A DNA stretch of 17,435 nt from Planctomycetota bacterium (GCA_038213805.1 JBBQSO010000105.1:1-17435), one strand, 5' to 3'. Positions 47-17,435 are shown, numbered from the stretch's first letter. Numbers and translations: made by a program. The notes: generated by a model not told the origin, from the letters alone.

Positions 47-65
47 ACTTGTGGGTAATGGGTAG
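47..65 (-). mobile_element. Orphan IS4/IS50-like terminal inverted repeat (right-end type)
   Basis: The reverse complement CTACCCATTACCCACAAGT is identical to the 19-mer abutting the transposase stop at 17298-17316 and matches the Tn5 outside end CTGACTCTTATACACAAGT at 13/19 positions. A TGA overlaps it, as in the gene-bearing copy. Confidence 0.75.
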
Positions 66-108
66 GGCTCGCGCCCTGGGCTAGTGGATGCCGCCCGCTC
101 CGCGGGCT

Positions 109-178
109 TTGGGCAGGTGCATTTCGAGGTTATTTTCCCGCGAATTTCGTCAATATTCGAGATGTGGGTAATGGGTAG
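109..178 (-). mobile_element. IS50-like end variant (probable left end) with about 50 bp of AT-rich interior
   Basis: 160-178 reverse-complements to CTACCCATTACCCACATCT, whose CACATCT 3' part resembles the Tn5 mosaic end. The interior on the - strand reads TTGACG-N15-TAACCT, which looks like an inward-facing promoter. Confidence 0.55.
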
Positions 179-317
179 GGCGGGGGCCCTGGGCTACGAT
201 GTGTCGCCCGCTCCGCGGGCTATCGACGCACACAATCAGCCTGACTTGTGGGTATTGGGCACGGCGGTTCCCTTGGCTTCCCACCGGTCGCGCCGTCGGC
301 ACTCGCGCCACACCCCC

Positions 318-740
318 TCACCGCTTCCGCCGCTGCTCCTGCAAGGCCAGCACCAGTTTGCGCAGATCGGCGAGCGGCAAGGCGCGCAGGCCGCCGATGC
401 GCGTGTTGAGTTCGGCGCCCGCAAGGGTGACGAGCTGGTCGACGGTAAGGATGGCGATGTCGACTTCGATCCGCCCCGCCGCCGGCGCCTCGACCGCGCC
501 GCCGACGCGCTTCCCGAGCGCCGCCGGTTTCTTGCGGAACAGCAGGTAACAGATGGTCTTCTGACTGCGACCCTTCTCTGTGAGCTGTTGAAAGCGCGCG
601 AAGTGCCGCGGGCTCAACCGCACCAGCACCGCCCGCCCGCCGGTGGATCGCCGGGACTGCCAGTTCGAGACGTAGTAGACCCAGCCGTCGCGCTCGCTGA
701 AGATGGCGTCCTTCGGAAGCTGAACTGCAGGCGTGGCCAT
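318..740 (-). CDS. Hypothetical basic protein (140 aa), C-terminus weakly resembling a Rho N-terminal/HEH-type helical domain
   Basis: ATG at 740 is preceded by a GGAGGA RBS. Composition is protein-like from MATPAVQLPKDAIFSERDGWVYY. The longer track ORF (to 842) just reads through heptamer repeats. Confidence 0.75.
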   Translation of the reverse strand: MATPAVQLPKDAIFSERDGWVYYVSNWQSRRSTGGRAVLVRLSPRHFARFQQLTEKGRSQKTICYLLFRKKPAALGKRVGGAVEAPAAGRIEVDIAILTVDQLVTLAGAELNTRIGGLRALPLADLRKLVLALQEQRRKR

Positions 741-798
741 GGCGGAGTCCTCCGTGGGGTGATGGAGCCGGATGCCGGGACGGAACCAGCGGACATGC

Positions 799-859
799 GC
801 TGCGAGCTGCGAGCTGCGCAACTCGCAACTCGCAACTCGCAACTCGCAACTCGCAACTC
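799..859. repeat. Heptamer tandem/inverted repeat cluster
   Basis: (GCTGCGA)x2.7 is followed by (GCAACTC)x6. The two blocks are near-complementary and can fold back. The cluster sits immediately after the symporter stop. Confidence 0.9.
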
Positions 860-1846
860 CTACGCCGCACCCTCCCCGGAGTTGCCCCCCACCTCACCGA
901 CCCTCTCCGGCATCCCCACCCAGCGACCCACGATCACCACGCCGATGACCATCGGCACCTGCATCAGCACCGAAGGCAGCAGCAGGTGGGCGTCGCCAGG
1001 GAAGAACTGGATGGCGACGACCAGGGACAGGCCGTTGTTCATGTAGACGGTTGAGCAGGCCATGCTCACACCACGGTCACGGCCCAGCCAGACGCGCATC
1101 AGCCGGCTGGCGAGGATGAAGAAGCCACTCGCCGCGCACACCAGCAGCAGCGGCTCGAGCAGTTGCTGCGCCGTCCAGCCTGCCCAGGCGTGGCGGTTGC
1201 AGGCGATCGACAGGGTGATCAGCGGGCACAGGCAGGCGATCGCCGCGGGTGACAGGCGGTGCTGGTTGCGCTCGACCAGGCGCGGCGCCATGCCGCGGAT
1301 GACCTGCGCGAGCGTGAAGGGCGTGCCCAGCAGCAGCACGATGTACAGCGCCTGCATCGCGAACAACGCAGACTCGCTGGGCTGGCCGGGAACGTGCTGG
1401 CCGATGCCGAACAGGTGCAGCATGGTCGGCGCGGTCAACGGGCAGATCAGGCTGCCTCCAAACAGCAGCAGCAGCGCCAGGCCGCGCTCACCGCCATAGA
1501 GGTCGGCGAAGGCCAGACTCGACAATCCGCCCGGCATCATCCCGACCAGCAGCATCCCCGGCGCCCACTCCGGGGCTACGGCCAGGGTCGCAGCGTAGGG
1601 GATCAGGGGCAGCAGCAGCAGCTTGAGGACGATCAGCGCGCTGAGGCGCGGCAGCGCCCCGGGCTCAAGGAAGGCCGCACGCACCTGGCCGAGGCTGACC
1701 TTGAGGCTGGAGCAGAACAGGATCCCGCCAAGCAGCACCGGCACCAGCGGCTTCAGCGCGGTGAAATCGCCGGGCAGCAAGAAGCCGGCGACCAGGGCTA
1801 TATAGGCGGGGATCCAGAAGGCCGAGCCGAGCAGACGCGCGAGCAC
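860..1846 (-). CDS. Bile acid:sodium symporter (BASS/SBF) family transporter
   Basis: About 9-10 hydrophobic segments and family-like motifs (LKLLLLPL, MPGGLSSLAFADLYGGERGLAL, YMNNGLSL). GTG start at 1846 has AAGGA upstream; 328 aa. Confidence 0.85.
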   Translation of the reverse strand: MLARLLGSAFWIPAYIALVAGFLLPGDFTALKPLVPVLLGGILFCSSLKVSLGQVRAAFLEPGALPRLSALIVLKLLLLPLIPYAATLAVAPEWAPGMLLVGMMPGGLSSLAFADLYGGERGLALLLLFGGSLICPLTAPTMLHLFGIGQHVPGQPSESALFAMQALYIVLLLGTPFTLAQVIRGMAPRLVERNQHRLSPAAIACLCPLITLSIACNRHAWAGWTAQQLLEPLLLVCAASGFFILASRLMRVWLGRDRGVSMACSTVYMNNGLSLVVAIQFFPGDAHLLLPSVLMQVPMVIGVVIVGRWVGMPERVGEVGGNSGEGAA

Positions 1847-1995
1847 GATGGGGGTCCTTGCCGGGCGGACGGGCCGCGGCTGGGGTGATGGTGGGGCCCG
1901 CCCGCCCACCGCCAGGGGCGAGTGCCGGTCGACTCCGGGCGGATTCGCGAGTACAACCTTAGCCGGGAACACCGCCCTCCGCCCCACCTGCGCCG

Positions 1996-3186
1996 ATGAA
2001 CTCGCCCTCTGACCACCTGTTGTTCGGAAAATTGCTGCTCGAGAAGCGCCTGATCAGCGCCGAGCAGCTGGACCAGTGCCTCCGTCTGCAGGTCGCGCAG
2101 GCCGAGACCGGCGAGCCCCACCGCACCCTCGGCGACCTGCTCATGGAGCTGGGCCTGATCGACCGCGAGCAGCTCGAGGCGACGCTCTCGGAACAGCGCC
2201 GGCGCCTGGTGCTGACCACCATCGGCCCTTACGTGCTGGTCGACCGCCTCGGCCAGGGCGGCATGGGCACGGTCTACCGCGCCCAGGTGCCGAACACCGC
2301 CACGCGCGTGGCGCTCAAGCTGCTGCCCAAGCATCTCGCGGGCGACCCCAACTACCTCTCGCGCTTCCGTCGCGAGGCCCAGATCGGCGTCGGCATGGTC
2401 CACCCGCACATCGTGCGCGCGGTGGACTTCGGCGAGTACAAGGGCACCTACTACCTGGCCATGGAGATCGTCGAGGGCGGCACCCTCGAGCAGCGCCTCG
2501 AGGACCTCGGTGCGCTCAGCGAGCGCAGCGCGCTGGGGATCGCCCGCGACCTGCTCGACGCGCTCGAGTACGCGCATCGCCGCGGCCTGGTGCACCGCGA
2601 CGTCAAGCCCTCGAACATCCTCTTCGACCTGCAGGGCGTGGCCAAGCTCAGCGACTTTGGCCTGAGCAAGGCCTCGGCCCCGGACCCTTCCTTCATGCTC
2701 GAGCACGGCCGCACGGTGGGCACTCCGCATTACATGGCGCCCGAGCAGGCCAAGGGCCAGGAGGTCGACGGCCGCGCCGATCTCTACGCGCTGGGCGCGA
2801 CGCTCTACCACGCGGTCACCGGGCGGTCGCCATTCAACGCCTCATCCGCGCATGGCCAGATGCAGGCCCAGGTCACCCAGGATGCGCCACCGCCGGAATC
2901 CATCAATCCCGACATCAGCCCGGCCTGCAGCCGGTTGATCCGCACCTTCATGGCCAAGGACCGCGGCCTGCGCCCGCCTTCCGCGCTCGCCGCCCTGGCC
3001 GATGTCGAGCGCGTGCTGCGTGGCGAGCAGCCGGCGACCCCGGGCCCACGCAACTTCGGCATTAAGCGTTCGACCACGGTGCGCGGCAGCCAGGCGCGTA
3101 CGCCGCTGCCCGCCTGGCTGGTGCCCGCCCTGGCCGCGCTGGTGGTGATGCTGGCGGCGACGGTGATCTGGCTGCTGGTGCGGTGA
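1996..3186 (+). CDS. Hanks-type Ser/Thr protein kinase with N-terminal MshEN-like tandem motif and C-terminal TM anchor
   Basis: Kinase motifs LGQGGMGTVY, VALK, HRDVKPSN, DFG, GTPHYMAPE and DLYALG are all intact. The N-terminus has two LGxxLxxxGLIxxxQLxxxLxxQ-like motifs, and the C-terminus is a hydrophobic helix. Confidence 0.95.
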   Translation: MNSPSDHLLFGKLLLEKRLISAEQLDQCLRLQVAQAETGEPHRTLGDLLMELGLIDREQLEATLSEQRRRLVLTTIGPYVLVDRLGQGGMGTVYRAQVPNTATRVALKLLPKHLAGDPNYLSRFRREAQIGVGMVHPHIVRAVDFGEYKGTYYLAMEIVEGGTLEQRLEDLGALSERSALGIARDLLDALEYAHRRGLVHRDVKPSNILFDLQGVAKLSDFGLSKASAPDPSFMLEHGRTVGTPHYMAPEQAKGQEVDGRADLYALGATLYHAVTGRSPFNASSAHGQMQAQVTQDAPPPESINPDISPACSRLIRTFMAKDRGLRPPSALAALADVERVLRGEQPATPGPRNFGIKRSTTVRGSQARTPLPAWLVPALAALVVMLAATVIWLLVR

Positions 3187-16572: not shown

Positions 16573-16909
16573 TTCTCTCCGAGGACGGCCACCCAAGCGC
16601 ATCCTTTCGTTTTAAGCGAACGCCTGCGCGCCGCCAACTCGGCCCGGTACGAACAGCGCCGCTCAACGTCAGCGTAGGATCGGCATCACCCGAGCATCAC
16701 CCGATACCCCGCGAGCCCATTGGGGCGTATAAAGTTAAGGAGTAACTGAATGAAAGGCGTGCACTGGATGACCAATCGACCTCGGCCCGCCCAGGGACGA
16801 AATCCCGTACGGTCCGCGCTTCCTGCCGGACGAGGCTGATGCCGGCGACCGGCGGTTCGTGCCGGCAGGAAGCGCAGACCGTGCGGGATGGTTAGGTTGG
16901 GCGATGGGT

Positions 16910-16957
16910 CCCAGGGCTCACGCCCTGGGCTAAATGGTGTCGCCCGCTCCGCGGGCT
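16910..16957 (+). repeat. Intact (uninserted) REP-like double hairpin
   Basis: CCCAGGGC-TCAC-GCCCTGGG-CTAAATGGTGTC-GCCCGCTCCGCGGGCT; same family as the left-edge units but without an IS end. Confidence 0.85.
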
Positions 16958-17064
16958 TTTGCATCGTCACACCATGGTTCGCAATGTCGCCCGCTCCGCG
17001 GGCTTTCGCAGCGTCATACCATGGTTCGCAATGTCGCCCGCTCCGCGGGCTTTCGCAGCGTCAT
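16938..17064 (+). repeat. 47-bp tandem repeat (about 2.7 copies) built on the second REP hairpin
   Basis: TGTCGCCCGCTCCGCGGGCTTTYGCAKCGTCAYACCATGGTTCGCAA starts at 16938, 16985 and 17032. Confidence 0.9.
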
Positions 17065-17074
17065 GATATGGGTC

Positions 17075-17297
17075 TCCGGGCTCACGCCTTGCTCATTACC
17101 CACAAGTCGTCCAGGCCGTCACGTCAAACGGGGCAGTTTGTCTGAAGCGCCATCGGCGCGACGCAAAGATAGCCCAGGGCAACGCCCCTACCCATTACCC
17201 ACAAGTCAGCGGGACGTTCGGCAGGTCACGGGGGACACCGTGGCTGTCTGCCCAGAGCGCCAACGGCGCGGCCAGAGGACCAGCCCAGGGCGAAGCC
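17075..17297. repeat. Right-edge array of REP halves fused to orphan IS50-like ends
   Basis: Ends lie at 17089-17107 (3 mismatches) and 17188-17206 (exact), each preceded by GGGC-N3/4-GCC(C). Paired second hairpins are AGCGCCATCGGCGCG and AGCGCCAACGGCGCG. Confidence 0.8.
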
Positions 17298-17435
17298 CTA
17301 CCCATTACCCACAAGTCATCGTCGTCGTTTTCGTTTTTCCGGCTGTTCAGCCTGAGCCTTGGCCATTTCCGCTTGAGCTTCCAGGGCCATGGCGAAATGC
17401 CGCACCATGTCGAGGCCGATCCATAGCGTTTTGGA
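17298..17435 (-). mobile_element. Right end of an IS4-family (IS50/Tn5-like) insertion sequence, truncated by the window edge
   Basis: The 19-bp end CTACCCATTACCCACAAGT at 17298-17316 overlaps the stop codon of a transposase-like C-terminus. The element is inserted in the REP stem after CCCAG-GGCGAAGCC. Confidence 0.78.
17316..17435 (-). CDS. IS4-family (Tn5-like) transposase, C-terminal 39 aa only (partial)
   Basis: Manual translation gives SKTLWIGLDMVRHFAMALEAQAEMAKAQAEQPEKRKRRR*. KTLWxGL resembles the PGxKTLWxGL motif of the Tn5-type dimerisation domain. It is absent from the ORF track because it is short and 5'-truncated. Confidence 0.72.
   Translation of the reverse strand, partial: SKTLWIGLDMVRHFAMALEAQAEMAKAQAEQPEKRKRRR

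Follow-up and report, generated by a model that had tools for sequence, protein, structure and literature searches.

Our study concerned a 17,435-base stretch of DNA, referred to here as the window, which is the whole of contig C105 in a genome (G000) that is assembled in 180 contigs and is 90% complete. Ordinary genes fill the mid-section of the contig, among them those for RuvA, an MgsA-type AAA ATPase, a Ser/Thr kinase, a protein of the sodium/bile-acid symporter family (SBF) and a Calx-beta/FG-GAP surface protein of 1675 residues; its two ends are repeat piles without genes. The right-hand end reads ...CCAGCCCAGGGCGAAGCC up to a junction, beyond which the sequence continues as CTACCCATTACCCACAAGT CATCGTCG... 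until the contig stops. The features of the two ends are the following, in window coordinates:

47..80, minus strand: MITE end (47-65, exact 19-mer) and REP right half GGCTCGCGCCCTGGG (66-80)
160..193, minus strand: MITE end (160-178, 2 mismatches, ...CACATCT variant) and REP right half GGCGGGGGCCCTGGG (179-193)
244..277, minus strand: degenerate MITE end (244-262, 3 mismatches) beside a REP-like flank, likewise degenerate; no paralogue found
16910..16929, no strand assigned: intact, unoccupied REP CCCAGGGC-TCAC-GCCCTGGG; a second hairpin repeat, GCCCGCTCCGCGGGC, comes next in three copies
17074..17088, plus strand: degenerate REP left half CTCCGGGCTCACGCC, adjoining the element that starts at 17089
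17089..17187, plus strand: older MITE-like fragment with a degenerate repeat at 17089-17107 (3 mismatches), cut by the next element
17188..17297, plus strand: left-hand portion of a MITE-like element that has its inverted repeat at 17188-17206 and is cut by the IS at its internal REP; intact copies continue through the REP
17284..17297, plus strand: left-hand remnant of the broken REP (arm CCCAGGGC, loop GAA, then GCC); paralogues on C141, C52 and C107 share 98.6% identity with the 70-nt flank
17289-17297: predicted left copy of a 9-bp duplication, GGCGAAGCC
17298..17435, plus strand: terminal 138 bases of an IS assigned to the IS50 subgroup, with the C-terminal end of its transposase; the contig ends there; 99% identical to the copies on C55 and C66
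17298..17316, plus strand: 19-bp terminal inverted repeat CTACCCATTACCCACAAGT, matching the IS50-subgroup consensus at 7/7 specified positions and the IS50R outside end at 13/19
17316..17435, minus strand: last 39 codons and stop of the putative transposase (Tn5 dimerisation domain), 87% identical to residues 427-465 of P0003

The 19-mer occurs six times in the window with three mismatches or fewer and was absent, at the same threshold, from 200 shuffles. The minus-strand frame next to it (17319-17435) translates as SKTLWIGLDMVRHF...KRKRRR, this strand encoding SKTLWIGLDMVRHFAMALEAQAEMAKAQAEQPEKRKRRR, and its stop codon at 17316-17318 overlaps the final base of the 19-mer. This overlap and the 13/19 resemblance to the Tn5 outside end had both been pointed out in a first-pass annotation of the window, and both were borne out, the second by sliding the 19-mer along an annotated IS50R record, where the outside end lies 92 bases upstream of the transposase start. 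The same annotation took the frame for a Tn5-type transposase, which agrees with what its C-terminus and its relatives contain: the 61-residue C-terminus available from a longer version of the frame on C66 scores 40.4 bits on the Pfam profile Dimer_Tnp_Tn5 (PF02281; cut-off 26.7), and the closest full-length proteins, P0003 (466 aa) and P0004 (465 aa), which are 87% and 84% identical to it over the 61 shared residues, each carry the Tnp_DNA_bind, DDE_Tnp_1 and Dimer_Tnp_Tn5 domains. P0003 scores 400 bits on the NCBIfam model NF033590, 'IS4 family transposase' (cut-off 160), is only about 29% identical to IS50R by tblastn, and aligns to the crystallised Tn5 transposase with E = 3e-32 and with the motifs NDTTE, ADREGD and YVCRWQIEIYFRVLK in register. 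The DTT, DRE and Y-x2-R-x3-E-x6-K signatures are kept in P0003, and DDE and YREK are also present in two full-length relatives of the element, L009 from the sister genome G002 (1477 bp) and L147 from a metagenome contig (1486 bp; a transposase of 462 residues with all three domains). An exact-pattern scan of metagenome contigs for the end together with the coding start gave 0 matches.

The IS50 subgroup is described as comprising elements of 1350-1550 bp with a single ORF, direct repeats of typically 8-9 bp and the end consensus CW------Y---CA-A--W-, starting with 5'-CT, within an IS4 family whose direct repeats are 'about 10 bp' as a whole (De Palmenaer et al., 2008, Table 1; PMC2266710). Because of the Dimer_Tnp_Tn5 domain, the domains of the relatives, the end consensus and the size of the relatives, the window element is, by sequence comparison, a member of the IS4 family and of its IS50/Tn5 subgroup, and its own copy would share the DDE domain of those relatives.

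Two other contigs of the genome end in the element, C55 with 139 bases and C66 with 205 (99% identity), and the breaks at the ends of C105, C55 and C66 are the signature of a multi-copy repeat breaking short-read assembly. Profile and tblastn searches showed the remainder of the C105 copy to be absent from the G000 assembly: a PF14706 profile search gave no match, and tblastn with P0003 and P0004 returned just the three C-terminal pieces. The PF01609 matches in G000 proved to be three other, unrelated DDE transposases, two of them being full-length IS on C87 and C123. The far junction of the C105 copy (GGGTAG then GGCGAAGCCCTGGG) is also absent from this assembly, and none of the 18 matches to GGCGAAGCCCTGG in G000 is preceded by an element end. 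The 1.25-kb unique flank of C105, compared with ten genomes of the genus, gave no orthologous empty site, just another short repeat. With 138 bases visible, the C105 copy could be a relic.

What precedes the IS is half of a hairpin. The left flank at 17284-17297 is CCCAGGGCGAAGCC, and the IS joins directly after GGCGAAGCC, while the paralogues of this flank on C141, C52 and C107 run on as CTGGGTAGTGCAG, that is, as an intact CCCAGGGC-GAA-GCCCTGGG in which the loop is 3 nt long and GGCGAAGCC is exactly symmetric about it. Since the REP is uninterrupted in these paralogues, the IS has split a REP that was internal to a MITE. The unoccupied REP at 16910-16929 folds into a stem of 8 bp with a loop of 4 nt (-10.1 kcal/mol, z = -3.85). 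Strict intact REPs with 3- or 4-nt loops number 45 in G000, against 0 for a scrambled control, and 99 in the sister genome G003. Two genes for Y1 (RAYT-like) transposases in G000 (C48:21166-21507 and C97:14408-14752) each lie between inverted REPs of the very family targeted by the IS, the pair on C97 having GTAG/CTAC tags, and the hairpins are thus true RAYT-associated REPs.

Other repeats accompany these hairpins. Three tandem units of about 47 bp at 16941-17060 each contain the second hairpin repeat GTCGCCCGCTCCGCGGGC, which genome-wide is found about 10 bp from REPs at a fixed distance, forming a composite (BIME-like) module. An inverted-repeat element of about 90 bp at 16802-16889 (ttcctgccgg...ccggcaggaa), also present on C8, C120 and C19 and in the sister genomes G010 and G003, is a further repeat family.

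Four other element ends of the window sit at, or within 1 nt of, the same place in their REPs. The junctions at 65/66, 178/179 and 17088/17089 all fall after the GCC of the 3' arm, and that at 17187/17188, in an internal REP (17173-17187, loop AAC) of the 17089-17187 fragment, falls 1 nt further on. Paralogues that run through an intact REP are available for three of the six window junctions: besides those of the IS flank, a C120 paralogue of the 47-80 site is 97% identical over the 70-nt flank and has the REP intact, and paralogues of the 160-193 site on C65 and C42 have it intact or near-intact. The first-pass annotation was right about the position of the IS junction, directly after a 9-mer symmetric about the loop, and about the empty target at 16910-16929; of the four further junctions it had grouped with that of the IS, the agreement in position to within about 1 nt stands, but they are the ends of transposase-less MITE-like elements and not of IS copies.

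These MITE-like elements contain no transposase, have just their first 20 or so bases in common with the IS, and are in several cases nested. The MITE cut by the IS would in turn sit in the internal REP of the older MITE; nesting at the 17089-17187 fragment is suggested by analogy, the paralogue search of G000 having returned no paralogue of its flank. The head-to-tail stack at 17089, 17188 and 17298 would arise from elements nesting in one another's internal REPs. The MITE families of G003 are about 203 and 324 bp long, and those of G000 about 245-440 bp; they end like the IS and have 9-10-bp duplications, and we infer that they are mobilised by this particular transposase. No transposase was detected in the MITE-bearing G003, a genome that is 62% complete, so this says little. 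Two large G003 elements with MITE ends (1929 and 2188 bp) had raised the hope of autonomous copies, which was not borne out: the larger (L129, G003:C37:20030-22530) is a MITE of the 324-bp family invaded by an IS110-family element, whose ORF (473-2170, plus strand; 565 aa) codes for an IS110-family transposase with Transposase_20 and DEDD_Tnp_IS110 domains, and the smaller (L128) looks, judging by ORF similarity, like a decayed version of it.

The association with REPs extends well beyond the window. G000 contains 50 copies of the 19-mer with three mismatches or fewer, against one for the reversed control pattern, and 37 of the 50 are directly preceded by a REP left half (strict pattern: CCAGGGC, a 3-5-nt loop, then GCC), which is found at 0.29% of background positions (binomial P = 3e-83). 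By eye, the remaining 13 comprise six or seven degenerate REP halves and six ends at non-REP sites. Just three of the 50 copies run into transposase, the others leading into about ten different short interiors. IS ends with the same REP flank are found in the sister genome G010, whereas related IS copies lie outside REPs at L009 and L017 (same genus; G002 and G008) and at L146, L166 and L168 (metagenomes). The REP preference is strong, not absolute.

It is conceivable that insertion is essentially random, as for Tn5, and that the link to REPs reflects survival alone, genic insertions having been purged. REPs are indeed extragenic, and one copy does sit in a gene: at one of the three IS junctions of G000, the C55 copy splits a long cheA-like ORF (C55:34106-35605; L010:1-1500), which contains the Hpt motif HTIKG and breaks off after ...DTEIDRTLAE. 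The insertion represents either a genuine disruption of the gene or a variant within the population behind the MAG. We nevertheless hold this explanation to be very improbable, as selection would be unable to fix the ends at one phosphodiester of a 19-20-bp motif, the strict REP motif accounts for about 1 kb in a genome of 5.5 Mb, and the position of insertion differs by no more than 1 nt between G000, G003, G010 and L147. The 'safe harbour' role that the first-pass annotation gave to REPs is an interpretation; its expectation that most genomic ends would have REP flanks is confirmed by the 37 of 50.

Whether the junctions are insertion sites at all can be judged from the sequences duplicated on their two sides. 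The long contigs of G003 contain 73 ends with two mismatches or fewer, against 0 for the control pattern, and 29 adjacent pairs of plus and minus ends examined among them were distributed as follows:

Perfect 10-bp duplication: 14 pairs
9 of 10 bases duplicated: 4 pairs
Perfect 9-bp duplication: 3 pairs
8 of 9 bases duplicated: 2 pairs
8 of 8 bases duplicated: 1 pair
No duplication: 5 pairs

Twenty-four of these 29 two-ended MITEs are on the REP axis and five at non-REP sites. For a full IS, L147 lies between GTAGCCCAG[GGCAACGCC] and [GGCAACGCC]CTGGG, with a perfect 9-bp duplication and the REP split in two. Its far end has both the duplicated 9-mer and the other REP arm, as the first-pass annotation had called for. 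The 'type 1 association' of REP-targeting IS (Tobes & Pareja, 2006) is thus seen in L147 and in the 24 G003 MITE pairs; for the window copy the left REP fragment alone is visible, and the paralogues show the intact REP. The pairs that could be parsed in the nested arrays of G000 (n = 11) comprise three clean 10-bp duplications, one at 7 of 10 and seven without any, some of them with inverted-looking loops. It is possible that duplications are few in G000 because of short-read assembly through repeats, with chimeric joins at identical MITEs, or because of recombination between copies.

The inverted-looking pairs of G000 raised the idea that the REP half belongs to the mobile unit, either within a longer inverted repeat or within a REP-plus-end module that the RAYT would disseminate, in which case the junctions would not be insertion sites. 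The same 15 or so bases do precede every end, a 5-bp mini-hairpin (AGGGC-loop-GCCCT) is kept at the junction, and in several G000 pairs the same loop appears inverted on both sides. However, the asymmetric loops appear as direct and not inverted repeats in 17 perfect G003 pairs, three G000 pairs and L147, which rules out the longer inverted repeat. The uninterrupted REPs of the paralogous copies, the use of the same ends at non-REP sites with 10-bp duplications of their own, and the unrelated flanks beside the same ends in other phyla also speak against it, leaving the explanation as a whole extremely improbable.

The non-REP duplications of 10 bp in G003 are GTCCAGAGCC, which is perfect, and GGTCTAGGGT and ACCCTAGACC, each at 9 of 10. 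Some MITE ends directly adjoin runs of a 7-base unit in tandem, (AGACCCT)n and (GCGAGAC)n (G000 C40:46740-47045, C21:7880-7900 and C31:48480-48880; L006:1350-1405 in G010; L129:130-160 in G003). These runs are the main non-REP target, with ACCCTAGACC as the duplication.

Taken with the paralogous empty sites, the G003 duplications and L147 support what the first-pass annotation had proposed, a Tn5 relative with REP-specific targeting, and we consider it very probable that an IS of the IS50/Tn5 subgroup and its MITEs insert preferentially at the dyad of the REP hairpin. In the mechanism that we propose, a full-length IS of about 1.48 kb would encode one transposase of about 465 residues between 19-bp inverted ends, and this transposase would move, in this Planctomycetota genus, not only the IS but also several MITE families, 200-440 bp in length, in which just the IS ends are kept. 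Its preferred target would be the dyad of a GC-rich, RAYT-associated REP, CCCAGGGC-loop-GCCCTGGG, into which the two strand transfers would be made 3 bp into each arm from the loop; repair would then duplicate GGC-loop-GCC and leave each element end adjoining CCCAGGGC-loop-GCC. As many of the MITEs carry internal REPs, elements would insert into one another and give rise to head-to-tail stacks such as that at 17089-17435.

The length of the duplication bears on how the target may be read. Both joints lie after the third arm base counted from the loop, the duplication being GGC-loop-GCC, and its length follows that of the loop: loops of 4 nt go with 10 bp in 13 perfect REP cases, and loops of 3 nt with 9 bp in three perfect cases and in L147. 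This 1-bp difference is independent of how the element termini are defined. This range of 9-10 bp is within the 'about 10 bp' of the IS4 family and beyond the 8-9 bp listed for the IS50 subgroup. Among the 24 occupied REPs, 19 have 4-nt loops, compared with 14 of the first 50 of the 99 intact REPs listed (Fisher P = 4.6e-5), an intact set that is inflated by 3-nt-loop REPs carried inside the MITEs themselves.

One reading of these data is that the same element recognises its target as a structure, an extruded hairpin or cruciform, with strand transfers measured from the stem and a duplication equal to the loop plus 6 for loops of any length. This would account for the way in which the duplication tracks loop length, for the use as targets of stem variants with paired changes (such as CCCCGGGC...GCCCGGGG in L104 and L128), and would fit the stability of the REP hairpin as single-stranded DNA. 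We think it rather unlikely, however, since non-palindromic sites are used with 10-bp duplications (GTCCAGAGCC, GGTCTAGGGT and ACCCTAGACC), occupied REPs are skewed towards 4-nt loops, as fits a preferred 10-bp spacing, and one site with a 4-nt loop has a 9-bp duplication (L095); loops of 5 or 6 nt were not seen among the sites. We lean towards a sequence-specific reading, in which the target is recognised in duplex DNA as two symmetric half-sites with 1 bp of play between them, which would be a strengthened version of the weak preference that Tn5 has for palindromes bounded by G...C. We read the two duplication lengths as those of a transpososome with a preferred stagger of 10 bp that tolerates 9 bp.

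Of the DDE transposases, that of Tn5 is the best understood, and it is prized for inserting almost at random; Tn5 has only a weak 9-bp target consensus and serves as a near-random mutagen. The window element and IS50/Tn5 have in common the end consensus, a three-domain transposase (seen, for the former, in its relatives) and a stop codon in or at the end repeat, but differ in that at least 74% of the ends studied here are at one position of one motif and in that the duplication is 9 or 10 bp. The target duplication is G...C-bounded and palindromic in both, as described for Tn5 (PMC1525189).

REP targeting as such has precedents, having been reported in the IS3, IS110, IS4, IS256 and IS5 families (Tobes & Pareja, 2006; PMC1525189). 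Insertion on the REP axis by a member of the IS4 family is already published: all ten copies of ISRm22 in Sinorhizobium meliloti 1021 are in REPs, inserted on the axis of palindromy with 6-bp direct repeats, and recombination between copies, by which the lack of perfect direct repeats in some copies is explained, was invoked for three of nine copies (PMC1525189). ISRm22 is thus, like the window element, a DDE element of the IS4 family that inserts on the REP axis and has some copies without perfect direct repeats. It differs in its subgroup, IS4Sa (De Palmenaer et al., 2008; PMC2266710), in the length of its repeats (6 bp, against 9-10 bp here) and in its alphaproteobacterial host; the swarm of self-nesting MITEs seen with the window element has no counterpart in the accounts of ISRm22 given in PMC1525189 and PMC2266710.

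Other elements also take a fixed position in REPs and are flanked by the broken halves, namely IS1397 and ISKpn1 (IS3 family) and IS621, ISPpu9, ISPpu10 and ISPa11 (IS110 family) (PMC1525189; PMC12288879). Their enzymes and chemistry are unrelated to those of the window element, IS110 elements using a DEDD recombinase guided by a bridge RNA (PMC11208160). The IS110-family element nested in a G003 MITE means that two unrelated REP-associated IS families co-occur in the genus. The literature searched contained no report of REP targeting by an element of the IS50 subgroup.

The end CTRCYCATTACCCACAAGT was found at 70 loci of species-representative genomes from many phyla, at least four of which are coincidental matches in coding sequence. 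A REP flank was recognised by eye at 20 of the 70, all of them from two Planctomycetota MAGs. Flanks from other phyla often have CTAGNN or ACATGTC at their end; such loci, from Proteobacteria, Verrucomicrobiota and others, include L024, L027, L047, L053, L054, L056, L071, L076, L036, L043, L069 and L090. This hints that a palindrome-centred target preference may be general in this clade of IS, with a different palindrome in each lineage.

Three features are new: REP targeting within the IS50/Tn5 subgroup itself, a duplication whose length, 9 or 10 bp, changes with the hairpin loop, and MITE families, derived from the ends, that bring their own target along and insert into one another, in a Planctomycetota genus that is mostly uncultured and has received little study. 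Should a Tn5-type DDE transposase turn out to capture the REP by its shape, with a stagger of loop plus 6 in place of a fixed ruler and with self-nesting MITEs, an outcome that we regard as doubtful, the family behind the standard 'random' transposase of genomics would gain its first near-single-site member guided by structure. A natural Tn5 relative with a defined palindromic target offers a direct handle on how this class of enzyme captures target DNA, and may be a possible seed for site-preferring tagmentation or integration tools.
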